From a virus (taxonomy: Duplodnaviria > Caudoviricetes): a DNA stretch of 64,000 nt. The position numbers were made by a program, and so were the translations under genes. A model generated the notes under the pieces. That model ran no database searches. It was not told the origin of the DNA and saw only the letters and a program-made list of their open reading frames with translations. The DNA is taken from positions 1,481 to 65,480 of the IMG/VR virus record IMGVR_UViG_3300014205_000023. One strand, given 5' to 3'. This document shows, one piece after another, positions 3,220 through 38,170 of this stretch (positions are counted from its first letter, which is position 1; each line of letters starts with the position of its first letter).

Positions 3220-4311
3220 CTAGCGGCTCAGGTGAGCTTCCACGCGGCGCTGTAGTGCCTCGCCGCTATCAGTCGTCTTGGTGGTCGGCTGCGGCAGCGG
3301 CGCCGTGCCGATCGTCGTCTGCTTGTCGAGCAGCACCATTGACGGGCGCGCTCGGATTGCAGCGAGTTGCTTGTCGTACAGGTCGCGATTGACCCGGAAC
3401 AGCTCGACCAGGCCATCCACCTCGGCCGGCACGATCTTGGTGCCGAGCAGCGCGGACAGGTCGCGGCGACACAATTCGGTGGTGGCCTTGTCGGCTCGGG
3501 CCTGTTGCTCGGCGCGCGCTGCTTCGAGGGCCACGGCGCGCTCGGTCAGCGCGGCAATGGTCGCATCGCGCTCGGCAATGGCCATCGCGAGTGAAGCGCA
3601 GCCGTCGTCAGACACGGCCACAACGGGCGCTGTCAGGTCGGCCATTGGCCCGGGCTCGTCGGCCACGACCTCGACCGGTGCCGGCTCGTCGACCACGGGC
3701 TCCGCAACGATGGCAGGCTCGGGCTCGGCCACGGGCTCCACCGGCTTGGGCTCCTCGGCCTCGACCGGCTCGGGAACCGACTGCATCTGCTTTCGCTTTG
3801 CCATAGCCTTTTCGCGTCGCCTCGCCTGTGCGTCCGGGTTGGCCGGGACAGGGGTCACGCTGAACTCAATCAGCTCGTTGTCTGCGAGCACCACGACGTC
3901 GTTGCCGTCGCGCATCTCGCTGCGCAGCTCGTTCGGGATGAAGCCAACCGAACCGGTTCGAAGCACGCCCTCGCGAACGAGTTGGAATGCCTGCTCGGCG
4001 CGCGGGTTGGCCCTCTCGGATGCGAAGACCACGGTTCCGCGCAGCTCGCCGTCGACCACGCCGACATTGACGGCCTTGCCGATTGGCAGCTCGCGGCTGT
4101 CGTGCGACCAGAGCACTACGGGGTTTGAGGCGTAGCTGTCGAGTCGCCAGGTTTGCTCGACGATTTCGCCGTATCGGTCGATGCGGTCGGTGCTGAAGGT
4201 GAAGTCGACTTCGCGCGAATCTTCGCGCATCGCTCGCACGTGCACGTCTCGCGTGCAGAGATCGCCCTGTCGTGCATCCATTCGGGCTGCCCGTTTCTGT
4301 TGCGGCAGCAC
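3220..4311 (-). CDS. HK97-family prohead protease fused to C-terminal scaffold
   Basis: DRYGEIV..LDSYASNPVVLWSHD..LPIGK, GSVGF, ELIEFSVTPVPANPDA; followed by Pro/Glu-rich linker and coiled coil. Confidence 0.9.
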   Translation of the reverse strand: MLPQQKRAARMDARQGDLCTRDVHVRAMREDSREVDFTFSTDRIDRYGEIVEQTWRLDSYASNPVVLWSHDSRELPIGKAVNVGVVDGELRGTVVFASERANPRAEQAFQLVREGVLRTGSVGFIPNELRSEMRDGNDVVVLADNELIEFSVTPVPANPDAQARRREKAMAKRKQMQSVPEPVEAEEPKPVEPVAEPEPAIVAEPVVDEPAPVEVVADEPGPMADLTAPVVAVSDDGCASLAMAIAERDATIAALTERAVALEAARAEQQARADKATTELCRRDLSALLGTKIVPAEVDGLVELFRVNRDLYDKQLAAIRARPSMVLLDKQTTIGTAPLPQPTTKTTDSGEALQRRVEAHLSR

Positions 4312-5742: not shown

Positions 5743-7626
5743 CTACTCAGACACGAAGACGTCCAGCACGTCGTTGGCCTGGATGTTGGGCGGGGCGCCG
5801 CCGGCCAGCGCGATGCTGAGCGAGTTGCCGACGATGGTAATCGCTTCCATGTTGGCGTGGGTCGTGCGGTTGAGCACCACGTAATGGTACGGCGTGAAGT
5901 CGAAGTGCAGTTGCAGCGTCGCCTTCGCAATGTCGGCCGCCAATACCGTGACGACCGCGCGGCTGTGCTGCAGCGAGCCGGCCAGCGCACCAAACCGGCA
6001 CGTTGCGTTGTCCCAGATGTCCGTGACGGTGGTAAGCCCATCGGCGCAGGCCGCGGCGGTCGCGCTCGGGCAGGGAGTGCCACCAACGGCATCGGCGGAA
6101 ACGATCGTTACGTCGCCGACCGTCACGTGGTCGACCTCGGCGAAGAATGCCTCTGTCGCAACCTGGTTGGCGATGATCGCGGGGTTAACCGTGCCATTGA
6201 TTGCCGCAACGAGGTTCGTTCGCGAGTTGACCGATGCGGCGCCGTTGTAGACCCAGATGCGGGCCGCGTCGCCGCCGGTCGGTGGCGTGTCACCGCGGAA
6301 CTCGTACACGTCAGCGCCGATCGTCACGGTATCGCCGGCCGCGGCAGCTCCGGGAGCGCCGAGCAGGCGGAGCCGGTTCTGGGCCGGCATGCCACTGAAG
6401 ATGTAGCCGCGGTGCCAACGGCCCGTGCCAGCGGTCGGCACGATGACGCCATTGCTCGCCACGGCTGCGCTCGTGGCGCTGAATCCCCAGGGAGTCATGT
6501 CGTCAATCTTGACGAGCGCCATGGCTTCCATGCGGCCAGTCGCAGCAATCGCGCGCACGGCAGCAGCGTCAGCGACCGGAGCGTGAAGCGCGCCGGTCAG
6601 CGCGTCCTTGCGCAGCCAGCGGCCAACGGCGCCGGCGGGAACCTGGCACCAGTCCGACGCGGCAGCGGCGCTGCCCAGGTCGTACATCCACAAGGTCATG
6701 TCATCGAGCTTGCAGACGAGCATGCCGTCGACGAGCCCGGCGTCGACAATCGCGACCAGTGCGGCATCGTCCGCGACAGGCGCGTGCGTGGCGCCAGTGA
6801 GCAGGTCGGTTCGGAGCCAGCGGCCGGTGCCAGCGGCGGGCACGGTCACCCAGTCGGAGGCGGCTGCGGCGCTGCCGGCATCGAATGCCCAGAGCTGCAT
6901 CGTGTCGAGCTGCACGCAAACCATGCCGTCCGCACGGTCAACGGCTGCGATGGCCGTGAGCGCGGCAGCGTCGGCCACGGGCGAATGGTACGCTGCCGAA
7001 CCGTCGAACTCGCCGAAGGTCAGCGCGGTCGTGTTGAGCGTGATCGCGCCGGTCGTCTTGAGCTGCCGGACGTGGCCAGCGAAGGTGCTGCCCAGCTCGA
7101 CGGGCACGAGCATCTGCGAGGTGACCTCGGCAGACTCGTCCGCATCGGTCGCGCGGGTGAACTGGAACTTGCCAGCGCCGCCGAGCGAGTCGCAAACGTA
7201 GAGCCCGTTGTTGGCGCCGGCTACCTCGTTCTGGATCAGGTAGCGACGGCCAGCGACGGCCGCGACGCCATCGATGTTGCCGAGCGCTCCGGCGACGTCC
7301 GCAAGCAGCACGTTGCCGGTGCGGGTATTGGCAGGGAGTGCCGCAGCGGTCGCGAGGTGGACCGCTTCCTTGTAGTCGCTCGTCGAGCCGGCACCGGCTT
7401 CGATCCAGCGGCCCGAGCCGGAGCCCGGAGCGATCACGGTGTCGCAGGCGGTCGCGGCACTGGTGGACGCGAATTGGAACAGCCGCGGACCGGCCTGTAC
7501 CACGCACAGCATCCCCTCGCAGCGGTCCTCAGCGGTAATCGCGGCCAGGGTGGTGGTGGTTGCAGTGGGCGCGTGGATGCGCTGACCAACCTTGCGGGAG
7601 AACGGTTCGCCACGAGAGAATGCCAT
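5743..7626 (-). CDS. Modular fibre/appendage protein with four HAP..GRW repeats
   Basis: 627 aa; repeats HxPVADxAAL...G.GRW; also a common fibre module (IDGV....RYLIQN....NGLY...TRATDAD.SAEV....GAITLNTTALTF). Confidence 0.65.
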   Translation of the reverse strand: MAFSRGEPFSRKVGQRIHAPTATTTTLAAITAEDRCEGMLCVVQAGPRLFQFASTSAATACDTVIAPGSGSGRWIEAGAGSTSDYKEAVHLATAAALPANTRTGNVLLADVAGALGNIDGVAAVAGRRYLIQNEVAGANNGLYVCDSLGGAGKFQFTRATDADESAEVTSQMLVPVELGSTFAGHVRQLKTTGAITLNTTALTFGEFDGSAAYHSPVADAAALTAIAAVDRADGMVCVQLDTMQLWAFDAGSAAAASDWVTVPAAGTGRWLRTDLLTGATHAPVADDAALVAIVDAGLVDGMLVCKLDDMTLWMYDLGSAAAASDWCQVPAGAVGRWLRKDALTGALHAPVADAAAVRAIAATGRMEAMALVKIDDMTPWGFSATSAAVASNGVIVPTAGTGRWHRGYIFSGMPAQNRLRLLGAPGAAAAGDTVTIGADVYEFRGDTPPTGGDAARIWVYNGAASVNSRTNLVAAINGTVNPAIIANQVATEAFFAEVDHVTVGDVTIVSADAVGGTPCPSATAAACADGLTTVTDIWDNATCRFGALAGSLQHSRAVVTVLAADIAKATLQLHFDFTPYHYVVLNRTTHANMEAITIVGNSLSIALAGGAPPNIQANDVLDVFVSE

Positions 7627-15580: not shown

Positions 15581-15912
15581 CACTTCCCGCCGTAGCTCCA
15601 ATCCAACCACACCTCGCCAGCGTCCACGTCGATGTGGGCCGTGTACTGGCCAATCCCGGGCAGCGGGTCGTCGCTGACCCACGTGTTCTCGCCGGTCCGG
15701 TGCATGCCCAGCTTCGCCGTGAACGGCACGAGGTAGAGCGGCACAGACTCGGCGCCGATGTGGCTATCTCCGAACACGACCTCCCGGCTCGCGCCCGGCA
15801 ACTGCTCGCAGCCGTCAACGCTGCGCAGGCCGTAACCGCGCCGCCGCGCATCGCCGCACACTGGCCAGCCGCGTCGGCGCCACTTCCTGATGCGCCGTTG
15901 CAGCTTGGTCAC
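15580..15912 (-). CDS. Hypothetical protein
   Basis: GTG start overlapping the upstream stop. Confidence 0.5.
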   Translation of the reverse strand: MTKLQRRIRKWRRRGWPVCGDARRRGYGLRSVDGCEQLPGASREVVFGDSHIGAESVPLYLVPFTAKLGMHRTGENTWVSDDPLPGIGQYTAHIDVDAGEVWLDWSYGGK

Positions 15913-23076: not shown

Positions 23077-23270
23077 GGGCGCACCTCGGCGCCATGGTTC
23101 CGCCATGGTCCTGCAGTCAGCCATGGCCGAACGGCGCAGATAGCGTCAGCTACGGGCCAGCAATGTCCGGCACGTAGCCGAAGCCACGACATCAAGACGG
23201 TAGCGGGACTGGCGCGAAACTGGCAGACGTCTAGGCTGTTTCGCTCTTTTCCGCGCCGTGCCCATGGTCG
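23077..23270. other. Candidate attP region
   Basis: Only sizeable gap in the leftward operon, immediately after int. Arm-like repeats GCCATGG at 23091, 23102, 23120 (CCCATGG at 23261) and ACTGGC at 23208, 23219. Confidence 0.5.
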
Positions 23271-24304
23271 GTGATCACGGTTTCGAGCGGCGGCGCCAGG
23301 TTCACGACGTTGCGCAGGTTCGCCATGTGGTCGGGCAGCATGTGCGAATACCGCTCGGTCGTGTGCTGCGTCGTGTGGCCAAGGATCCGCGCCAGGTCGA
23401 ACATGCTCCCGCCGTTCGCGAGGAAGTGCGAGGAGAAGGTGTGTCGTAGCTGGTGGGCGCCGCCGCTCAACTCGGCGAGTTTGACCGCTCGCTGCCAGTG
23501 CTTCACGGGCCACTGCAGTCGGTGCCGACCGTAGCGCGAGCAGAACAGCGGGCCGCTCGGCAGCACCGGCCCGAGCGACGCGAGCGCAGCATCCGAGAGC
23601 GGAACTTCCCGAGCCCGCCCCGACTTCGGCCGCCACTCGCGCGTCACGGGCACGCGCACGAGCCGGGCATCGACGTCCACCCACTGCCACTCGGCCGCGA
23701 TGATCTCGCCGCAGCGCATCCCGGTGTTGACCGCGAACGTCACGAGCGGGGTCAGCCACCGGGCCGTGGCTGAGCATGCAGCGAACAAGCGCGCCAGTTC
23801 GTCCGCTCCGAACGCTCGCGCCCTCGACGGGCCCGACTCGCGCAGCGGCTTGATCGCTGGCCGGCTCACCGGCTGCCCGCTCGCGCGAGCCCAGGACAGA
23901 ACCGCCGACAGCGCGCGCAGCTCCGAGTTGACCGTCGAGGGGCGCATCCCGGCGCGCACGCGCGCGGCCTTGAACGCCTCGACCGTGGCCGTCGAGAGCG
24001 TAGCGAGCTTCGCGTTGCCCAGCGCGGAGCAAAGCGTTTCGATCTGGTAGCGTCTGGACTCGTGCCATGTCCTACGCCCCAGCTGCCTTTCCGCGTGCTC
24101 CCGGTAGCGGTGCGCGCAGAAGTCGGCGAACGTCATCCCGGCTCGGGCCTCCGGGCAGTCCTCGGCCCGCAGGCGCAGGCGCTCGCTCGCCTCGAACGCA
24201 TTCGCCTCGGCCTTCGAGCCCCTGACCAGCTTCTCGTGCGGCTTCCCGCCCGACCAGATCACTACCCGCCACTGCCCCTTGCGAGAGCTGCGATAGACCG
24301 GCAT
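23231..24304 (-). CDS. int: Tyrosine integrase
   Basis: NTGMRCGE (R), HQLRHTF (HxLR), LGH..TTERY (H, Y); N-terminal arm-binding-like segment. Confidence 0.95.
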   Translation of the reverse strand: MPVYRSSRKGQWRVVIWSGGKPHEKLVRGSKAEANAFEASERLRLRAEDCPEARAGMTFADFCAHRYREHAERQLGRRTWHESRRYQIETLCSALGNAKLATLSTATVEAFKAARVRAGMRPSTVNSELRALSAVLSWARASGQPVSRPAIKPLRESGPSRARAFGADELARLFAACSATARWLTPLVTFAVNTGMRCGEIIAAEWQWVDVDARLVRVPVTREWRPKSGRAREVPLSDAALASLGPVLPSGPLFCSRYGRHRLQWPVKHWQRAVKLAELSGGAHQLRHTFSSHFLANGGSMFDLARILGHTTQHTTERYSHMLPDHMANLRNVVNLAPPLETVITDHGHGAEKSETA

Positions 24305-25746: not shown

Positions 25747-25788
25747 CGACCGGTGGACACCGGCAGCGAGCGGCCTAGGATTCGGCCC

Positions 25789-26985: not shown

Positions 26986-27246
26986 ATGAAGGTGGCAACG
27001 ACGGCAGACCAGCGACGCACGGCGCGGCGCGTTCAACGGCTGCTCGACGCAGCACGCGGCGCCGACTGGCTCGCGACGATGACGACCGGCACGGCGCCGG
27101 CACTACTTGCCCGCCGCGCCCGTGAACTGCGCGACGAGCACCGGGACGAGATGCGCGAGGCGATCCGGGTGGTCGCTGCGCATGTAGACGAACGCGCGCG
27201 TAGCACGATGCGTGCCGAGACGGAGCGGGAGGCGACCAGTGTGTAA
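26986..27246 (+). CDS. Hypothetical protein
   Basis: First ORF after the rightward promoter; GAAAGGTGG RBS. Confidence 0.55.
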
Positions 27247-27991
27247 GCACCTATCAGCGATCCTGATCGAGGGTGGAGAGCTACTCCACAGCGACGTGAC
27301 GGACAGCCACGAGGCGCTCATCGCGGCGCGCGGCCTGCGAGACGGCCACGCACAGCTCGGGCGTTTCGTTCGCGTCGAGCTGGTCTGGCCAGACGACCCC
27401 GAGCGCATCGCGGACGTCGAGGCGTGGACGCTGCACCTGGACGAGCCGTCCGCGCCAGACTGGTGGACCGACGATGTGCAGGCGGACTGTGCGCGTCGGC
27501 TTCGCGCTGTCGTGGCGCGCGAGCTGCTGGCCGACGAGCGCGCGTGCGTACTCGGTGGGTGCTGGGTCGTGCTGCCGGGGGCCAGGCTCGGGCGGCTCGT
27601 GGGCGGGCGGATCGCATGGGCGCGCAGCGCGGACCTGCGCAGCGCGGACCTGCGCAGCGCGAACCTGGGCGGCGCGGACCTGCGCAGCGCGAACCTGGGC
27701 GGCGCGGACCTGGGTGGCGCGGACCTGAGCTACGCGGACCTGCGCAGCGCGAACCTGGGCGGCGCGGACCTGCGCAGCGCGAACCTGGGCGGCGCGGACC
27801 TGGGTGGCGCGGACCTGAGCTACGCGAACCTGAGCGGCGCGAACCTGGGTGGCGTGGAACTGAGCGGCGCGAACCTGCGCGGCGCAGCTCGCTGCTCGTG
27901 TCCCAATCACCAGATCCATGGCTGGCGACGGCTCGACAATGGGACGCTGGCCCGCGACACGGAAACACCGGTCGGTGAGGTGCAGCCATGA
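27239..27991 (+). CDS. Pentapeptide repeat protein (start approximate)
   Basis: About 17 A(D/N)Lxx repeats ([15 protein letters not shown]) after an N-terminal domain. Confidence 0.9.
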
Positions 27992-28371: not shown

Positions 28372-28524
28372 CCGCCCGCGACCGCGAGCGCGCCGACTAC
28401 TTCGCTGCCGACGTGCTCTGCGAAGTGCTGGGCGACGGAAGGATCGTTGAAGCGACGGACCTAGCGGAAGCGGTCGAGGCGGCGGGGCTCTGTGACGACG
28501 AACTGGACGAGGAGGGATGAGACA

Positions 28525-29574
28525 ATGGACCTGCTAACCACAAGCCGCATGCGCGCCTACCAGGCGTGCCCCAGGCTGCACCAATACGAGTATGAGCTTG
28601 GCTATCGGCTCGCGGTCGAAGCCGAGGAGCTGCGCTTCGGCACCTTGTGGCATGAGGGGCAGGCCGCATGGTGGCTCGCCGACAGCGCGCGCTTGGAGGC
28701 CGGCATCGATGCCATCCGGCGCAACTCGGCATACCAATTCGACGCCGTGAAGGCCGAGGAGTTGTTGTTGGGCTACGACGCAATGTGGAGCGGCGAAGCG
28801 CTCACGGTGCTCGCCGTCGAGGTCGAGTTTGCGTGCGACCTGCGCAACCCCGAGACCGGCGCCGCAAGCCGCACGTTCAAGCTCGGAGGAAAGCTCGACG
28901 GCGTCACGCTAGACGCCGCGGAGCGCGCCCTCATCGTCGAGCACAAGACAACGTCGAAGGACATAGCCGACGGCTCAGAGTACTGGCGCCGCCTACAGCT
29001 CGATTCGCAGGTGAGCACTTACTACGAGGGCGCGCGAGCGCTCGGGCACGAGCCGCAAGGGTGCATCTATGACGTCGTGCACAAGCCGACGATTCGCCCC
29101 TACCAGGCAACGCCGGTCGAGCTGAGGAAGTACACCAAGGCTACGAAGGACAAGCCGAGCGCGCTTTACGCGAACCAGCACGAAGCCGACGAGACGCCAG
29201 AAGACTTCCGCGTGCGGCTGCGCCAGAGCATCGTTGAGGAGCCGGGCCGCTACTATCGCCGCGGAATCGTCGTGCGTCTCGAAGAGGACGAGCGCGATGC
29301 GGCCTTCGACCGGTGGCAGACGGCCGCCGCCATCCGCGAAGCCCGCCGCGCCGGGCGCTGGCCACGCAACCCCGACGCCTGCGACCGATGGGGGCGCACG
29401 TGTCCCTACTTCGACGTGTGCACGCGCACCGCTTCGCTGGACGATCCGCTGCGCTTCCGTCGCGCCGAGCGCACCCACGAAGAACTTTCGACAGCCATTC
29501 AACCAGTCAGCACGAAGGAGACCGACGACAATGCAAACAGCAGCAACAGCACTCAAGCCAGCGACGCCGCGTAA
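28525..29574 (+). CDS. PD-(D/E)XK exonuclease (RecB/AddB/Cas4-like, probable Fe-S)
   Basis: CPR...RFGTLWH, GKLDG, IVEHKTT, QVSTY, C-terminal C..C..C. Confidence 0.85.
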   Translation: MDLLTTSRMRAYQACPRLHQYEYELGYRLAVEAEELRFGTLWHEGQAAWWLADSARLEAGIDAIRRNSAYQFDAVKAEELLLGYDAMWSGEALTVLAVEVEFACDLRNPETGAASRTFKLGGKLDGVTLDAAERALIVEHKTTSKDIADGSEYWRRLQLDSQVSTYYEGARALGHEPQGCIYDVVHKPTIRPYQATPVELRKYTKATKDKPSALYANQHEADETPEDFRVRLRQSIVEEPGRYYRRGIVVRLEEDERDAAFDRWQTAAAIREARRAGRWPRNPDACDRWGRTCPYFDVCTRTASLDDPLRFRRAERTHEELSTAIQPVSTKETDDNANSSNSTQASDAA

Positions 29575-30493
29575 GCCAGAGCCAGCGAAGCCGCTTCGGA
29601 TGACGCTCGACGCCATCACAAGCGGGCGGCGCAAGCGTCCCATGCGCGTCTTGCTCTACGGCACCGAAGGCATCGGAAAGAGTACGTGGGCAAGTGGTGC
29701 CCCGGCGCCCGTGTACCTCGGCACCGAGGACGGCACGGCCCAACTCGACGTCGCGCGCTTCCCAGAGCCACAGACGTGGGGTGAAGCGCTCCAAGCCGTC
29801 GACACGCTCACGACGCAGGAGCACGTCTACAAGACGCTCGTGGTCGACACGCTCGACTGGCTGGAACCGCTTGCGTGGGATGACGTGTGCGGCAAGGCCG
29901 GCGTCGACAACATCGAATCGCTTGGCTACGGCAAAGGCTACGTGGCTGCGCTCGACCGCTGGCGCGACCTGCTGGCAAGGCTCGACGTGCTGCGCGACAA
30001 GCGCGGGATGCACGTCATCTTGCTGGCTCACTCGTGGATCAAGACGTTCCGCAACCCCGAGGCTGACGACTTCGACCGCTACGAGCTGAAGCTCCACGCC
30101 AAGTCTGCGGGGCTCGTCAAGGAGTGGTGCGACGCGGTACTGTTCGCGGCCTACGAGACGCTCGTTGCCGAGAAAGACAAGCGCGTGCGCGGCGTCGACA
30201 CCGGCGCACGCATCGCGCACACCGAACGCCGAGCGGCCTGGGACGCGAAGAACCGGTACGGGCTTCCAGCGCAGCTCCCGCTTGACTGGTCGGCATTCGT
30301 CGAAGCCGTCGAGGTCGGGGCCCCCGCCAGCGCGACGGCGCTCGCCGCGCGCATCACGGAAGCTCTCGAAAAGGCGCCGGCCGACCTGGCAGCCAAGGTG
30401 CGCGTCGCGGTCGACGCGGCCAAGCAGGACGCCGGCCAGCTCGCACGCATCCTCGACAAGCTCACTGCAAAGCTCAACATTCAACAGCAGTAG
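29531..30493 (+). CDS. Sak4-like / AAA_24 ATPase recombination protein
   Basis: LLYGTEGIGKS, YKTLVVDTLDWLE, GYGKGY, ILLAH, EWCDAVLF, AKNRYGLP. Confidence 0.88.
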   Translation: MQTAATALKPATPRKPEPAKPLRMTLDAITSGRRKRPMRVLLYGTEGIGKSTWASGAPAPVYLGTEDGTAQLDVARFPEPQTWGEALQAVDTLTTQEHVYKTLVVDTLDWLEPLAWDDVCGKAGVDNIESLGYGKGYVAALDRWRDLLARLDVLRDKRGMHVILLAHSWIKTFRNPEADDFDRYELKLHAKSAGLVKEWCDAVLFAAYETLVAEKDKRVRGVDTGARIAHTERRAAWDAKNRYGLPAQLPLDWSAFVEAVEVGAPASATALAARITEALEKAPADLAAKVRVAVDAAKQDAGQLARILDKLTAKLNIQQQ

Positions 30494-30506
30494 GGAGACA
30501 ACGACA

Positions 30507-31019
30507 ATGATGAATCCAGGACGATACACGGCGCGCGCAGTGGATGCGGCGCTTGGCTACACGGCAGGCGGGAAGGAGCAGGTCGCGGTTGCGTTCCAGA
30601 TCATCGGCGGCGAGCACGACGGCGAGGCGCTGCAGTGGTACGGCTACTTCACCGAGAAGACCACGGAGCGCACTATCGACAGCCTGCGCGCGTGCGGCTG
30701 GACCGGTGACAACATCGCGCAGCTCGACGGCATCAGCGCCAACGAGGTTTCGTTGGTCGTGGTGCACGAGGCCGACCAGAACGGCGACATGCAGGTCCGC
30801 GTGAAGTGGGTGAACCGCGCGGGCTCGGGAGCAATCCAGCTCAAGAGCCGCATGGACCAGGGGCAGGCGCTGCAGTTCGCGCAGCGCATGCGCGGCAACG
30901 TTCTCGCGTTCGACAAGCAACAGGTTGCGCGCACCGGAGGGAACGGTGCGGCGGCAAGACCTGCGCAGAGCGGCAACCGCGCGCCCGCCCCAGTGGATGA
31001 CGATCCGCTGCCATTCTGA
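30507..31019 (+). CDS. ssDNA-binding protein (DUF669-like)
   Basis: PGRYTARAV..., acidic DDDPLPF tail; follows the Sak4-like gene. Confidence 0.8.
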   Translation: MMNPGRYTARAVDAALGYTAGGKEQVAVAFQIIGGEHDGEALQWYGYFTEKTTERTIDSLRACGWTGDNIAQLDGISANEVSLVVVHEADQNGDMQVRVKWVNRAGSGAIQLKSRMDQGQALQFAQRMRGNVLAFDKQQVARTGGNGAAARPAQSGNRAPAPVDDDPLPF

Positions 31020-31089
31020 CCCAGCTCGCGCAGCGCCCGCCCGGCAGCGCCCAACGGTGCCCCGGGCTTGAGGGCGTAGGAGGATAGCG

Positions 31090-31332
31090 ATGCGTTCACT
31101 ACTTGTTCTGGCTCTGGCCCTCACGGCAACGGCGTGCACCGACAACGAGGGGGCCACGCGCGCCCTGGAATCAATGGGCATGAGCGACATTCAGCTAACC
31201 GGCTACGAGTGGACCACGTGTTCCGATAGCGACACGTTCCACACCGGGTTCCGCGCGACGAATCAGGCCGGAAAAAAGGTGTCCGGCGTAGTCTGTTGCG
31301 GGTGGTTCAAGGACTGCACCGTTCGGTTTTGA
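31090..31332 (+). CDS. Small lipoprotein
   Basis: Signal peptide with lipobox ATAC; CSDSD..GF.A...SGVVCCG. Confidence 0.8.
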   Translation: MRSLLVLALALTATACTDNEGATRALESMGMSDIQLTGYEWTTCSDSDTFHTGFRATNQAGKKVSGVVCCGWFKDCTVRF

Positions 31333-31401
31333 AGCCGCGCCAGCCCAGCGGCATCCGAGTGCGAGCCTCGGACTGGCGACCAACCGACAGGAGAGACGAC
31401 G

Positions 31402-31728
31402 ATGGGAACACGAGTCTATGGCGCGAGCGACGACCTGATCGAATTCGAGGGCGACTTAAGCGGCGAGGTCAGCTGCTACGGCACGGACGACGACGGGCAC
31501 ACCGGCGTGCTGCTCACGTTCAGCGACGGCACGATCCTGGTGGTGAAGTACGGCAAGCCCGGCTGCGGCGGCGTTTGGGGCATCACGACCGTTCACGCCG
31601 GGAAGATGCTCGACCGGATCGATGCGTGCTCGGACGAGGATGCCGACCCGCATAGCGACCAGGCCTTCTTCAAGGAAGGCGTGAGCCTCAAGTGCTGGGC
31701 GGCGACGCAGTGGGAAGTCGTGCATTGA
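31402..31728 (+). CDS. Hypothetical protein (cassette 1)
   Basis: VYGASDDLIEFEGD; starts in the repeat. Confidence 0.8.
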   Translation: MGTRVYGASDDLIEFEGDLSGEVSCYGTDDDGHTGVLLTFSDGTILVVKYGKPGCGGVWGITTVHAGKMLDRIDACSDEDADPHSDQAFFKEGVSLKCWAATQWEVVH

Positions 31729-31777
31729 CCGGCGCTGCGCTGGCCGTGACCGAAACCAACCGACAGGAGAGACGACG

Positions 31778-32650
31778 ATGGCAGACAAGTCCAAGATCAG
31801 CTGGTGCGATGCGACGTGGCAAGTCGTAGCGGGTTGCTCCCCAGTGTCTCCCGGCTGCGCGAATTGCTACAGTGCGCGGTTGCTCGCTACCCGCCACCGT
31901 CATCTGCCGTGGGCGCGCGGGCTCGCAGTGTACGACGACAGCGGCGATGGCGAGCGGAAGGCGCACTGGACCGGCAGGGTGGTGTGCCGGCGAGACCAGC
32001 TCACGTGGCCGTTCCACAAGCGCGCTCCGCTCGTGGTGTTCGTCGGCGACCGCGGAGACCTGTTCCACGCTGCCGTGCCAGACCGGTTCATAGCCGAAGT
32101 GTTCACGGCCGCCTACCTGTCGCAACACACGTTCCTGATGTTGACGAAACGGCCGCAGCGAATGTGTGAGTACGTGACCGCGCGGACCGCCAGCGACGAC
32201 GACGCGATTCGCAACATCTGGCTCGGCACCACCGTCGAGGACCAGCAACGCCACGACGAGCGCGTGCCCATCCTGCGCGAGACGCCCGCCGCGCTGCGGT
32301 TCCTGTCGGTCGAGCCGCTGCTCGGGCCGGTCAAGCTCGATCTGCGCGGGGTTGGCTGGGTTATCGTTGGCGGGGAGAGCGGGCCGGGCGCGAGGCCGTG
32401 CCACCGGGAATGGGTCACCAGCATCGTGCGACAGTGCAAAGATGCGGCTGTCCCGGTGTGGGTCAAGCAGCTCGGCGCTAATCAGCGCTACGACTTCGGA
32501 GCGAGCCACCCGTTCCCACGACAGCGCTCCGGTTCCGACATGGCCGAGTGGCCCATTGACCTGCGCATTCGTGAGCGGCCAGCGATTGGCGCTGCGCGGG
32601 CCGTGACCGAAACCAACCGACAGGAGAAACGACGATGGGACGAACGTTGA
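31778..32650 (+). CDS. Gp37/Gp68 family (DUF5131) protein (cassette 2)
   Basis: SKISWCDATW..GCSPVSPGCANCY, LTKRPQR, IWLGTTVEDQ, FLSVEPLLG, WVIVGGESGPGARP, VWVKQLG. Confidence 0.92.
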   Translation: MADKSKISWCDATWQVVAGCSPVSPGCANCYSARLLATRHRHLPWARGLAVYDDSGDGERKAHWTGRVVCRRDQLTWPFHKRAPLVVFVGDRGDLFHAAVPDRFIAEVFTAAYLSQHTFLMLTKRPQRMCEYVTARTASDDDAIRNIWLGTTVEDQQRHDERVPILRETPAALRFLSVEPLLGPVKLDLRGVGWVIVGGESGPGARPCHREWVTSIVRQCKDAAVPVWVKQLGANQRYDFGASHPFPRQRSGSDMAEWPIDLRIRERPAIGAARAVTETNRQEKRRWDER

Positions 32651-33354
32651 GGCGAGTGCCAATGGATTTCGATCACCCAATCGGCAAGCTGTGGCCCGGG
32701 TACGTACCGCCGACCTGGCGGCCGTGCCCGAAGTCTGGCGTCGACTGCTTCAGCGGCGGCACCGCGGCCGGCGCGTGGCTGGAGTCGATTGCGCGCCTAA
32801 TCGCCATGGTTGGAGACGAGGGCGCGGTCTCGACCCAGGCGGCGGGACTTCGGGCGCGCGGACGAACCTACCCGCATCCGTACCTTACCTCATGGGATCA
32901 GGCACCAAGGAACCGCGTTCGCGGCGGGCTCGTCCCGCTGACCGACGACCTGCGCGCGCTGGTAGAGGGTCTATCTGGAACGAAGCACGGCAACAGTCTC
33001 CTCGGCTTCGATGCGTACCGGATCGCGCACAAGCTGGCAGAGGTCGCGGGCATGCCCGATCGGTGGGATTGGTGCAAGGTGTGCAACGGAACTGGCACCC
33101 ACCCGGACGACATCGCGGCGTCCGAGAGCTGGGAGCCGACGCACCCACCTACCGGAGACGGCTACCAGCTATGGGAGACGACCTCCGAGGGGTCTCCGGA
33201 ATCGCCAGTGTTCGCTTCGCTCGACGAGCTGTGCTCGTGGTGCGCAGACAACGCCACGACGTTCGCCAACTATCGTGCGAGCGCTGCCAAGTGGCGCGAG
33301 ATGCTAGACACCAACCTCGTGATGCACGTCGAGGGCAATGTGGCGTTCATGTGA
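32635..33354 (+). CDS. Hypothetical protein (cassette 3)
   Basis: MGRTLRRVPMDFD..W...PPTGDGYQLWETTSEGSPESPVF. Confidence 0.8.
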   Translation: MGRTLRRVPMDFDHPIGKLWPGYVPPTWRPCPKSGVDCFSGGTAAGAWLESIARLIAMVGDEGAVSTQAAGLRARGRTYPHPYLTSWDQAPRNRVRGGLVPLTDDLRALVEGLSGTKHGNSLLGFDAYRIAHKLAEVAGMPDRWDWCKVCNGTGTHPDDIAASESWEPTHPPTGDGYQLWETTSEGSPESPVFASLDELCSWCADNATTFANYRASAAKWREMLDTNLVMHVEGNVAFM

Positions 33355-33403
33355 CCGGCGCTGCGCGGGCCGTGACCGAAACCAACCGACAGGAGAAACG
33401 ACG

Positions 33404-33712
33404 ATGGCAAAGAAGATCAAGACAGCGAAGCGAACGACCAAGACCAAGGCGCAGTGGGAGCTTGAAGTGCGCGAGCTGCAGGACCGCATCTATGAGCACC
33501 TGCGAGAGGGGAACGCGGTGGCCAAACGCGCCGATGACCTAGCCTCCCAGCTCACCGCAGTCCGCGCCGAGTTGGCGAAGCAGACGGCATCCTGCGCGCA
33601 TGCCAACGGCGAGGCGGACGCGCTCAAGCTGGCCATGCGCATGCTGGCCAACACGATCATCGGCAAAGAGACGTTCAGCTCGTGGCCGTGGCAGGCGCCC
33701 GAAGCGAAGTGA
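33404..33712 (+). CDS. Coiled-coil protein (cassette 4)
   Basis: Starts in repeat copy 4. Confidence 0.7.
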   Translation: MAKKIKTAKRTTKTKAQWELEVRELQDRIYEHLREGNAVAKRADDLASQLTAVRAELAKQTASCAHANGEADALKLAMRMLANTIIGKETFSSWPWQAPEAK

Positions 33713-33749
33713 ACCGCCCGCCCTGCGCGGCAAAGGAGGGAGTCTAGCG

Positions 33750-34325
33750 ATGCGACTATGGAAGGTACTGAGCGAGGACGGCGCGAGCTGCCACGGCGGG
33801 GACGCGAAGTGGAGCCTGCCGCGCGACAGTCGGCCCGGCGAGTGGATGCCCAAGCGCGATCCGGTGCTGTGCGTGTCGGGCTACCACCTATGCCGCGACG
33901 AGGATTTGGTCCACTGGCTCGGGCCGCGCATCTGGCGAGCCGAGGCGAGCGGCGAGATCCTGGTCGGCGACGATAAGGTCTGCGCCGAGCGGGTGCGGCT
34001 AGTGGCGCCCACGGTATGGGATGAGCCGCTTGCGCGCCGGTTCGCTGCGCTATGTGCCTGGCGCGCATTGTGCCGCGAGCGCCGCGCTGGACGTGAGCCG
34101 CACGCAGACAGCTGGGTCGCGGTCCGAGCGGCTCTGGCCCATTCGCGCGGCGAGATCGGAGGCGATGAGTTGGCTGCGGCGAGGGATGCGGCGTGGGCTG
34201 CGGCGAGGGATGCGGCGTGGGCTGCGGCGGGGGATGCGGCGAGGGCTGCGGCGGGGGCTGCGGAACGAGCGGCGCAGACGCGGATTTTGCTGCGGGTGAT
34301 CGCCAGAGCGGCGAAGGAGGGATGA
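33750..34325 (+). CDS. Hypothetical protein with AARDAAW repeats
   Basis: CVSGYHLC...DKVCAERVRLV plus tandem AARDAAWA repeats. Confidence 0.75.
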   Translation: MRLWKVLSEDGASCHGGDAKWSLPRDSRPGEWMPKRDPVLCVSGYHLCRDEDLVHWLGPRIWRAEASGEILVGDDKVCAERVRLVAPTVWDEPLARRFAALCAWRALCRERRAGREPHADSWVAVRAALAHSRGEIGGDELAAARDAAWAAARDAAWAAAGDAARAAAGAAERAAQTRILLRVIARAAKEG

Positions 34326-34752: not shown

Positions 34753-35072
34753 GCCTAGACGTGTACCTATCCGAGACGCGGCCAGTGGACATCTACCAGG
34801 CCAACATAACGCACAACCTCAACACCATGGCCGCGGAGGCAGGCATCTATGAGGCCCTATGGCGCCCAGACGAGCACGGGATCACCCACGCGCGGCAGCT
34901 CATTGAGCCGCTGCGTGCCGGACTTGCGCTGCTCATCGCCGAGCCGGAGCGGTTCGCGAAGCACAACCCGAGCAACGGGTGGGGGAGCTACGATGGGCTC
35001 GTTGCTTTCGTGCGCGAGTACCTAGCGGCGTGCGAGAAGAACCCGGACGCGCAAGTGCGGGTGTGGCGATGA
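34749..35072 (+). CDS. Conserved phage protein, paralogue of 18908..19222
   Basis: GTG start; SLDVYL..NITHNL..NPSNGWGSY. Confidence 0.8.
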   Translation: MSLDVYLSETRPVDIYQANITHNLNTMAAEAGIYEALWRPDEHGITHARQLIEPLRAGLALLIAEPERFAKHNPSNGWGSYDGLVAFVREYLAACEKNPDAQVRVWR

Positions 35073-35422: not shown

Positions 35423-38170
35423 GCTACGAATGCGCAATCGGGACTGGAATCCAAGGGCTACCAGCGCGCTCCGGTGGTCTGCGGTGCGACGGTTGCGGCA
35501 TTCTCCGCAGCGTCACCAACCGCCACGGCCAGCCTTACTCGTGGCTACTCGACAACCGAGCGGCGCCGCGATGGCACATGAGGCGCGAAGGCGTGAAGCG
35601 GCTCGACCTGTGCCCGGAATGCTGGGCGCTGGCCAAGGCAGCGACGGACGGGCAGGTGTCCCCATGACCGCCCCGCCGCGCCCAACGCCGGCCGAGCTTG
35701 CGCGGCACTGTTGCGGGCTGGGGCATCGGCTCGTTGCGTCAGAGCACTGGCTTGCTGATTTCGTGTGCGTGGACTGCGGAGCGCGCGCCCACTTCTCACA
35801 CGACGCGGGCGGGCTCCGCTGGCAATGGGACGTGCTGCCCTGGACGTCCCAGAAGCCGCCCTGCACCGGCGCGGCACGGGGCGACGAGAGGAGGGACGAG
35901 GGATGACGGACACAATCAAGCCCAGGGTGCGCGACGGCGTTCCGCACTGCTCAGAGACCGACTGCCCGCAGTACGACGGCAAGAGGTGCGCCGTGATCGG
36001 CTGTAGACCGTTCGCCATCTGCGAGCCGTACGTCGAGCGCATGGCGAAGGAACTGGCTAGCGTTGTGGCCGAGCGAGACCGGCTTCGGGAGGCGCTGGCG
36101 GAGCTGGTGAACTGCGTCGAGGTACTGATTACCACCGACTATGGGACGATCGCGGCCGGGGACGCCGAGGTGGCCATGTACTCAGCTGCCAACGACGCCC
36201 GCGCCGCATTGGAGGAGACGAAGCGATGAGCACGACGGACGACACGCGCACGGCCACGCTCGTGGCGCCTGACACAATAGCGGCCCTCACCGCCGCCCTC
36301 GCCCGCGCCGAGCAGGCCGAGCGCGAGCGGGACCGGCTGCGGGCGGTGATTCTCCGCGCTGGCCTGTGGCAAACGGCGCCGTGCTGCCTGTGCGGCTACA
36401 ACGGGCCAGGATACTACCAGCCGGGAACGCACGACTGCGCCCGCGCCGCATTGGAGGACGTGAAGCGATGAGAGAACCGATTCGAGCGTGGGCGCTGGTG
36501 TGGTCCGACCTGGGCCTTGCCCGCGTCACCACGAGTAAGGAAGACGCGGACAGCGCCGAAGCTGGGCACCCCGGCATGAGGGCCGTCGAGCTTGCCGAAG
36601 CCGCCCCGCTGCGCGCCGAGGTCGAACGGCTCCGCATGGATGCCGGTCGGCAACTGGCCCGCTGCGCCGTGTTCATGCAGGCGATGTCCTGGCTCGCCCG
36701 CAATGGCTATCAGGAGCGCGCCAAGAAGTTCGTCGAGCGAGCCGACGCGGCGGCGGCAGACGTGCGCCCGGAGGATTTCGTGGTGGCGAAGCCGTGCGGC
36801 GCTGACGCAGAGGAGACAAAGCGATGAGTGACGTAGATGATCTACGATCCAAGGTAGTTCTGAGGGCTCCGGGATGGTGCGCGGCGCAGCGTAAACTGGA
36901 GTCGATGGGGGAGTCGGTCGAACGTCGGCCGCTGCTCGCTGTCGCCCCCGCTACCACCGCCCTCGCCAGAGCAGAAACGTTGCAGGTGATCGTTGACGAG
37001 GTAAACGCGAGCCGCGAACAGCTTCTCGACCGCGCCGAGCAGGCCGAGCGGGAGTGTGATCGGCTCGCCGAAATTGTCGCCCAACGCAACGATGAAATCG
37101 CTGCTGTCGGAGAGCGCCTTGACGACGCACTCGAACGCGCCGAGCAGGCCGAGCGTGAGCGGGACGAGGCGGCGCGGCTGTGCGTGGAGATGCAGGAACG
37201 CGAGCGCGCTCGTCTGTTCGAGACGTGCCCTGACGATTGCGGCCAGCCCAAGGCCGACGCCGACTGTATCAGGTGTCTAAATCTGTACCCAGAAGAGCAC
37301 GCCACAATCGAGCGCTGGCGAAAGGAGTTGGACCGATGAGCTACTCAAGATGGGGCGCGCCTGGGCGCTACAGGGTAGGCGGGCGATGGTACGACGGCAC
37401 CGGAGACTGGTACGTTTACGCTGATGTGTGCGGCAAACTGGCCGTGCTGGGCCCGAGCGAACACTACTTCACGGACGACGAAGTCCGCACCATGCACGAC
37501 CGGCGCGACCTGTCCGCGGTCACTGGCGCCATGAGCAAGCACAGGGCAGAGTTGCTCTGGTACTTCGGCGAGTACTTGGACGACTGCGCGAGATTGGACA
37601 GCGAGGAAACAGAACGGAAGGACACGAGCCGATGACCACCCCAACGAAACCCCTCACCCCCGCCGACTGGTGGGCGGCGCTGCCCATCGCGCAGCAGGTC
37701 GCGCTACTCGAAGCCGCGCCGCTGATCGCGGGTCCGTGGCGCAAGGTCGGCACGACGTGGGGCCGGGCTGAGCGCGGGCCGTACGACCGCTGGGCGGCGC
37801 TGGTGTGGCGAGAGGGCGGCATGTGGGTAAGGCGCGTCGAGGGCGACATCAGCGGCGCGCGCCGAACCGTGGCCGCAGCCAAGCGCATCGCCGATGCCGA
37901 GCTGCGCGCGGCGGGGTGGAGGCTGATGTGAGCGCCGAAGGATGGCGCTGCTGCGCGACGTGCTCCAACCTGCGCCGCCCGGGGCCTCGCCGACGTGCTG
38001 CGTCGTGCTGGCATCTCGGACTCTACCTGTTCCCCATGTCGCCGTGGCGCTCCGACTACGGCCACGCCGGGAGCAGATGCACCAACTGGCTACCCCGCCT
38101 CGTCACGCCCCGCCCCGAGCTCGTGGGCTACGCGGTGCGGGTGGGGGCGGACGTGCTGGCCAAGCGCTGA
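35419..38170 (+). CDS. Chain of nine small translationally coupled hypothetical genes (35419-35667, 35664-35906, 35903-36229, 36226-36471, 36468-36827, 36824-37339, 37336-37635, 37632-37931, 37928-38170)
   Basis: Each start overlaps the previous stop by 4 nt (ATGA/GTGA); purine-rich RBSs; several CxxC and coiled-coil motifs. Confidence 0.75.
36196..37155 (+). repeat. Coding-embedded repeats
   Basis: CGCCCGCGCCGCATTGGAGGA-N3-GAAGCGATGAG at 36196 and 36438 (partial at 36810); exact CGCGCCGAGCAGGCCGAGCG at 36304, 37031, 37136. Confidence 0.9.

Follow-up and report, generated by a model that had tools for sequence, protein, structure and literature searches.

Introduction

In T4-type phages, genes can be separated by promoter-early stem-loops (PeSLs), elements that run from the stop codon of one gene to the Shine-Dalgarno sequence and ATG of the next (Arbiol et al. 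2010, PMC2839356). For these elements both indels between sister phages and mini-circles have been demonstrated (PMC2839356; Comeau et al. 2014, PMC4122927). The Cluster K mycobacteriophages carry another kind of boundary repeat, the start-associated SAS, a 13-bp motif present in 11-19 dispersed copies in the non-structural half of the genome and conserved across the cluster (Pope et al. 2011, PMC3203893). Its AGGAG core lies 3-7 bp before start codons, mostly ATG, and the ESAS form adds paired 17-bp imperfect inverted repeats (PMC3203893). Here we analyse a leader of up to 56 nucleotides (nt) that is repeated before four consecutive, unrelated genes of a tailed phage, IMG/VR virus record IMGVR_UViG_3300014205_000023. 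The source record has 65,480 bases, of which a stretch of 64,000 was analysed; we call this stretch the window, give coordinates of this phage in it, and list features on the plus strand unless stated otherwise.

The array lies behind a predicted recombination module, and the properties of such modules bear directly on how the repeats may have arisen. Sak4 and the SSB that belongs to it can anneal and recombine short, oligonucleotide-length homologies, even when these are 12-20% diverged (PMC5928155). Acidic C-terminal tails are found on SSBs (DDDIPF in E. coli SSB, NDYPPF in HK620 SSB), and the HK620 SSB needs its tail to stimulate its Sak4 (PMC5928155). The reading that we favour, and to which we give about an even chance, is that the leader is a stop-to-start junction private to this lineage, which supplies a strong start region and was spread by recent recombination at gene boundaries.

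One junction before four unrelated genes

The 25-mer CCAACCGACAGGAGARACGACGATG occurs at 31380, 31756, 32613 and 33382, always on the plus strand. No occurrence would be expected by chance and none was seen in 100 dinucleotide-preserving shuffles; there is no fifth copy anywhere in the 65,480-bp genome, and no 12-mer of the leader recurs elsewhere in it on either strand. Every copy ends at the ATG of one of four successive genes (31402, 31778, 32635 and 33404), and all four finish with GGAG, 8 nt and ATG. The four encoded proteins are without mutual similarity by blastp. In other words, four unrelated whole open reading frames (ORFs) have each received a copy of one junction, and the copies differ from each other at 0-2 positions.

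The copies differ in extent. Copy 2 (31726-31780) is full length: it opens with gene 1's TGA, closes with gene 2's ATG and has 49 nt in between. Copy 4 (33352-33406), also full length, extends in the same way from gene 3's TGA to gene 4's ATG. Compared over 31726-31781 and 33352-33407, the two are identical at 54/56 positions. Copy 3 (32588-32637) is 5 nt short at its 5' end and falls within the gene 2 reading frame; with the next G included it matches copy 4 at 51/51 positions (32588-32638 and 33357-33407). Copy 1 (31379-31404) is partial and holds the 3' start-region half only, with 27 nt, including the G after the ATG, identical to copy 2 (31379-31405 and 31755-31781). Neighbouring copies are the most alike, one variant being common to copies 1 and 2 and the other to copies 3 and 4, and the long copies form direct repeats of 51-56 nt that stand 769-857 nt apart. 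The initial annotation had reported this leader before four unrelated genes, with the same identities and with copies 2 and 4 beginning at the previous gene's TGA; the 25-mer search, the shuffles and blastp bear it out, and all its factual statements (repeat, coordinates, identities, read-through and recombination trio) hold.

A possible partial fifth copy downstream of gene 4 was dismissed, as its score lay within the null, at about the top 5% of stop-downstream regions. Among ~160 other phage loci scanned, none has a repeated leader of this kind in front of unrelated genes, and the longest that was seen is a single 31-nt pair. Two loci in this set, and no others, have a repeated leader before unrelated genes at all: L114, with a 31-nt AT-rich leader in two copies (4200-4230 and +710), and L077 (minus strand of the locus, 15680-15699 and +436), with two copies of an A+C-rich 20-mer ending in GGAG.

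A repeat of this length, near common k-mer sizes, could also be the point through which an assembler chained fragments of different genomes, the ~55-nt repeat being the link. We hold such an artefact to be highly improbable. The same proteins are recorded from JGI, ENA and Logan assemblies, with contigs of 65,596 and 65,498 bases, the copies retain private variants and a unique truncated junction, and the GC3 of the four cassette genes (0.79-0.87) is like that of the rest of the genome.

Some 3 kb downstream, the same operon contains a second and different family of junction repeats (36196-36230 and 36438-36472, with a partial third copy at 36794-36828). Its 35-nt block, identical at 32/35 positions, combines codons for a protein end of the form ...EE(T/V)KR with a ribosome site and an overlapping stop and start (ATGA); the genes that it joins are small and otherwise unrelated. 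This second repeat suggests that the process recurs in the operon. An exact 20-mer coding for RAEQAE is also present, at 36304, 37031 and 37136.

Whole genes, native ends and one imprecise join

Three of the four cassette genes have both ends intact. Gene 1 (31402-31728; 108 aa, phrog_10666) has 260 homologues of 104-108 aa at 97-100% coverage, and its N- and C-termini agree with those of the homologues P0242 and P0243, so that start and stop are both native. Gene 3 (32635-33354; 239 aa) encodes a Cys-rich member of a widespread phage family for which there is no Pfam model. Alignment A1 of its 685 homologues shows M1, G2 and R3 as nearly invariant, four Cys as invariant and the ...VFM end as nearly invariant, matching the native MGR... 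start and ...VFM end found here. Gene 4 (33404-33712; 102 aa, coiled-coil-like) is rare, with two true homologues; its termini are the same as those of P0364 and P0366, start and stop are native, and no leader copy follows it.

Gene 2 (31778-32650) encodes a DUF5131 protein of the phage Gp37/Gp68 family (PF07505, E 7e-71). Its start is native, and its native last codons and stop are gone. In alignment A2 the homologues stop 1-8 residues past the invariant P268 of ...EWPxDLRVRExP. The protein here continues for 22 residues past that proline, and 20 of these (271-290) are encoded by copy 3 together with the opening 16 nt of gene 3, since the gene 2 ORF passes through copy 3 and overlaps gene 3 by 16 nt. 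Because the homologues end near this motif while the present ORF runs on into the leader, the alignment supports reading the junction as a recombination scar, at which the gene's own end and 5 nt of the leader were removed. The read-through had earlier been taken for a recent join.

Taken over the whole array, the right edge of the repeat is a native ATG in 4/4 genes and the left edge a native stop in 2/3. It is this precision that any account of the copies as a one-off has to face. On that account, a good ribosome site was duplicated locally in front of neighbouring genes, in a small number of events that were illegitimate or due to gene conversion, and the repeats, without any continuing role, will decay or be deleted. 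Just four copies, all within 2 kb of a single genome, a leader found nowhere else and one imprecise junction would all fit. Yet three junctions with a full spacer sit exactly on native ORF ends, which would need repeated precise events or selection, and the second, different junction repeat 3 kb downstream suggests a recurrent process. We therefore rate a one-off as rather improbable.

The genes themselves do not form a fixed block, which the initial annotation had named as the outcome that would make the array a single duplication. Homologues of the 108-aa and 239-aa proteins occur in many unrelated phages with other neighbours: those of gene 1 have unrelated neighbours in 20 other phage loci, those of gene 3 lie in 80 viral loci, jumbo phages included, again beside other genes, and over the ~100 viral loci with homologues of the two the neighbours are almost always unrelated. 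The protein-atlas clusters of gene 3 are 85% viral, and the atlas entries for genes 1 and 3 read 'hypothetical, viral' only. On the reading that we favour, the four are independent, widely travelled phage genes that became attached to the junction within this lineage.

Certain associations do recur. A gene 3 homologue directly follows a homologue of the small gene at 31090, described below, in L108-L110, and directly precedes a DUF5131 gene in L115 and L116; genes of the gene 3, DUF5131 and 31090 types are thus found together in other phages, in other orders.

A predicted Sak4 recombination module upstream

The trio in front of the array begins with a PD-(D/E)XK exonuclease (28525-29574; PF12705, E 1.8e-15; phrog_1218 exonuclease, E 2e-29), for which an alternative GTG start exists at 28492 and whose start region is GGAGGGATGAGACAATG. 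A Sak4-type single-strand annealing ATPase follows (29531-30493; PF13479 AAA_24, E 3.5e-52; phrog_124 Sak4-like, E 5e-48), preceded by the motif GGAGACCGACGACAATG (29517-29533). The third member (30507-31019), preceded by GGAGACAACGACAATG (30494-30509), is an SSB-like partner with a weak DUF669 match below the Pfam cut-off (E 0.0026) and an acidic C-terminal tail, ...DDDPLPF. The order is conserved: the exonuclease adjoins Sak4 in 34 related loci, and the SSB-like gene is kept after Sak4 in 18. Like the Sak4 recombination modules described before (PMC5928155), this one pairs a core-only RecA-like AAA_24 protein with a distant SSB, encoded next to it, whose C-terminal tail is acidic; the annealing activity of the module is predicted from sequence. 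The trio recorded in the initial annotation about 360 bp before the array is thereby confirmed through PF12705, AAA_24/phrog_124 and the weak DUF669 match.

Between the end of the SSB-like gene (31019) and leader copy 1 there are 360 nt, and these contain one small gene (31090-31332) for a signal-peptide protein of phrog_902. It is outside the repeat family and has a different ribosome site, AGGAGGATAGCGATG. Its start region (31071-31092) is of the same type, AGGAGG...TAGCGATGCG, as that of the gene on the other flank of the array, at 33750 (33727-33752), with 10 nt identical through the ATG; this likeness could be chance, as ~0.3 such pairs are expected among all gene pairs, though the two that match are precisely those bordering the array.

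An unfolded leader without transcription signals

The leader combines an AGGAG Shine-Dalgarno sequence, 8 nt from GGAG to ATG and an A+C-rich 3' half with very little predicted structure. Its 5' half is G+C-rich and has no recognisable signal. In RNA folding against shuffles the three long copies are weaker than expected (z +1.2 to +1.6), and partial copy 1 has z +0.1. When 81 gene starts are ranked from the least structured upwards, the SSB-like gene comes 2nd, Sak4 3rd, gene 4 4th, the exonuclease 7th, gene 2 8th, gene 3 11th and gene 1 23rd; the ensemble energies of these seven start regions lie between -5.6 and -13.3 kcal/mol, the median being -19.1. The Sak4 and SSB genes of other phages also have A+C-rich start regions. 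In the present genome the motif GGAGA-N1-5-CGACR-ATG was found 6 times against 0.03 expected, and only before Sak4, the SSB-like gene and the four cassette genes. In its 3' half the leader would thus offer a strong and open site for starting translation, built like the starts of the phage's Sak4 and SSB-like genes, and we infer that the leader boosts translation. Its earlier description as an expression module is supported by the Shine-Dalgarno sequence, the spacing, the base composition and the predicted lack of structure.

The same motif gives rise to the main alternative to our reading. T4 gp32 acts on its own message, and the unfolded leader could likewise be a shared translational operator, bound by a regulator such as the phage SSB, a RegA-like repressor or a small RNA, with Sak4, SSB and the four genes forming one regulon. 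The copies would be kept alike by selection and gene conversion, and recombination would be incidental. A 3' motif common to the Sak4 and SSB-like starts and present nowhere else, in start regions that are all unusually unstructured, is what such an operator would look like, and the Cluster K SAS is an earlier case of repeats at gene starts for which a role in translation is suspected (PMC3203893). Set against this, the identity over 51-56 nt, the G+C-rich 5' half included, far exceeds what a binding site needs, while the Sak4 and SSB regions have only ~15 nt in common with the leader. Moreover, no regulator was found, the intervening gene at 31090 is without the motif, and the DUF5131 scar is left unexplained. 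We consider a shared operator unlikely, though it is the alternative to be taken most seriously.

Signals for transcription are missing from the array. There is no sigma-70-like promoter in 31000-34000, the single such site in 25-40 kb being at 25754, and no terminator-like site (hairpin plus T-run) within the array; the leader has no Rfam match, no inverted repeat or stable pairing in its 5' half and no attC-like hairpin. The genome yielded no phage sigma factor, and a search for a T7-type RNA polymerase found none in it, with the control genomes of the same search also giving none. Two further explanations meet their test here. According to the first, each copy is a PeSL-type or phage-polymerase promoter module that starts and/or stops the transcription of its gene. 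The position from stop codon to Shine-Dalgarno sequence and ATG is indeed that of PeSLs, but sigma-70-like hexamers and a hairpin plus T-run are absent, the three long copies fold more weakly than shuffles, no sigma factor is encoded, and inspection by eye gave no GG-N10-GC sigma-54 pattern, which leaves a promoter module very improbable. According to the second, we are looking at an integron-like, site-specific cassette array served by a phage recombinase. Promoterless ORFs in one direction and a tyrosine integrase in the genome would suit it. The leader lacks any attC-like inverted repeat or hairpin, the integrase appears to be of an ordinary phage type, 7 kb off and on the other strand, and no attI or Pc arrangement was seen; we judge a site-specific array to be the least probable of all the explanations considered.

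A leader private to one genome

A search for close relatives of this phage through Sak4, portal, cassette gene 1 and cassette gene 3 found none in the collections searched. The closest IMG/VR Sak4 proteins have 57-60% aa identity and the closest portal 47%. The phages with the closest Sak4 share only the trio, and none of the four cassette genes follows it there. Nor did the leader itself turn up. Its 25-mer, 21-mer, 16-mer and 5'-half 20-mer had only single chance matches in IMG/VR, JGI metagenome contigs and GTDB genomes (one genome per GTDB species), these being generic ribosome sites and, in L183, one site within a capsid gene. The best blastn match among GenBank phages had an E-value of 2, and the regions upstream of cassette-gene homologues do not resemble the leader. 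Since the leader is absent both upstream of the homologues and from the collections, it was acquired within this lineage and did not arrive with the genes.

On this point the initial annotation finds no support. It had described the leader as portable, and the leader is absent from IMG/VR, JGI contigs, GTDB genomes, GenBank phages and the upstream regions of the homologues. It had also proposed to look for the leader in other phages, and BLASTn and exact searches of phage and metagenome data, in which this phage has no close relative, returned chance matches only.

The phage and its operon

The source record has direct terminal repeats and an estimated completeness of 100%, and the genome, with a G+C content of 66.8%, encodes a Mu-type portal, a DnaB helicase and a phage tyrosine integrase; from these features together we take it to be a complete temperate tailed phage. 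The integrase (23231-24136; PF00589 and Int_N) is the sole tyrosine recombinase found and lies on the opposite strand, 7 kb from the array. The array itself sits in a long rightward row of genes that begins after the sigma-70-like site at 25754, a layout reminiscent of lambdoid phages, in which recombination genes and accessory genes share an early operon. One terminator-like match was seen up to ~38 kb, at 34985 and downstream of the array; shuffled sequence has more (mean 7.3). Genes beyond the studied region were called by a rough GC3-based script.

Several other repeats were noted in and around these regions. Just upstream of the recombination module, a gene at 27239-27991 codes for a pentapeptide-repeat protein with ~17 copies of A[D/N]LxG/S units at a 15-nt period, and pentapeptide-like repeats of 15-nt period are also present in the fetched Sak4-module flanks of several phage loci (e.g. 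L019, L023, L027, L039). One of these, L023 (IMGVR_UViG_3300042196_000297), has at 6911-7320 a 36-nt direct repeat that occurs at least 6 times at a spacing of 72-76 nt and has the look of a CRISPR-like array on a phage contig. Downstream of the cassette genes, the gene at 33750-34325 holds a tandem repeat of 12-nt period (34169-34264, ~8 units) coding for tetrapeptides of the AARDAAWAAA type.

Discussion

To explain the anatomy of the array, the native ORF ends, the scar, the unfolded and promoterless leader and its privacy to one genome, we return to the junction spread by recombination at gene boundaries. The repeat would represent one complete gene junction, the 49 nt from TGA to the next ATG, and each copy would drive the translation of one whole accessory gene within the long rightward operon. 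We envision that a junction already in place took up whole ORFs or had one exchanged for another, that a single join, the one behind DUF5131, was imprecise, and that a newcomer gene would in this way receive a ready start region inside the operon. Once present, repeats of 51-56 nt would be good substrates for annealing by the adjacent exonuclease, Sak4 and SSB, which would allow cassettes to be deleted, duplicated or exchanged with co-infecting kin. We infer that the copies were made by homologous or annealing-type recombination and that they are still acted on by it.

Several points weigh against this reading. No related genome carries the leader, so gain, loss or swapping of a cassette has never been observed. 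The copies have only two variable sites between them, and the order of events can't be reconstructed. Homologous exchange also fails to explain the first precise fusion of an ORF to the leader, where the starting ATGG and the closing TGA are all the homology on offer. Finally, selection for a common regulatory site combined with gene conversion gives the same picture.

A bolder version may be considered, that of an integrase-free gene-capture system run by the exonuclease, Sak4 and SSB, with the unfolded junction of roughly 50 nt as its dedicated homology arm. Whole ORFs, from start to stop codon, would be loaded, dropped and swapped, the content of the array would vary between virions of the same population, and the expression of the cassettes would be tied to that of the recombination genes. 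We find it doubtful that the system goes this far.

The present case is one well-documented singleton, with a clean anatomy in one genome and a proposed exchange of cassettes. If recombination at gene boundaries did spread the junction, shuffling of genes by junction repeats would not be bound to the promoter-terminator cassettes of T4-like phages! A bare translation leader would suffice, within the operon of a temperate high-G+C phage and beside its annealing genes. Phages would then have a simple and testable route by which to try accessory genes without breaking expression, and for phage engineering the array would suggest a natural design in which homology arm and ribosome site are one.

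Comparison with known systems

Short asymmetric repeats at gene boundaries, all in one orientation, are shared with the stoperators of Cluster A phages (named in PMC3203893); stoperators, in contrast, are 13-bp repressor sites spread over the whole genome, whereas parts of the leader of at least 12 nt recur nowhere else. With integron cassettes (attC/IntI) the array shares one-directional, promoterless ORFs split by a recurring element. It differs from them in having no folded attC and apparently no IntI/attI/Pc platform, and in that the exchange proposed here would be by homology and not site-specific. The term 'integron-like', used in the initial annotation, fits the array poorly; for exchange by homology the published model is the PeSL of T4-type phages (PMC2839356).

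Closer in appearance is the SAS. In both cases an asymmetric repeat with an AGGAG core stands shortly before the ATG of unrelated genes, sometimes overlapping the upstream stop, and a translational role is suspected; the GGAGA-N1-5-CGACR-ATG motif likewise precedes six genes, all with ATG starts. The present leader, on the other hand, has 4 copies (6 by the loose motif), before consecutive genes within 4 kb, and is absent from other phages. It is also 27-56 nt long, near-identical, contiguous, without the inverted repeats of the ESAS and private to one genome.

The PeSL remains the nearest relative in kind. Leader copies 2 and 4 also reach from the upstream stop through the Shine-Dalgarno sequence as far as the start codon that follows, and the repeats flank small accessory genes of unknown function. 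In both systems the repeat is proposed as the homology by which whole genes are deleted, inserted and swapped; for PeSLs this has been partly shown. The differences are equally clear, as the leader is without a sigma-70 promoter, without a stem-loop or terminator and without an AT-rich tract. It measures ~50 nt against ~100 nt and occurs in four clustered copies against ~50 per genome. Its host is a temperate phage of 67% G+C with a Sak4 module, not a T4-like phage, and there is no sister genome with module indels. Our analysis would thus place the leader as an element that works like a PeSL yet does not belong to that class, two of the defining features, a strong early promoter of sigma-70-like type and a stable stem-loop for termination or attenuation, being absent. 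Gene-boundary shuffling itself is already known from T4-like phages; what sets this array apart from PeSLs is that its junction is unfolded, promoterless and next to a Sak4 module.

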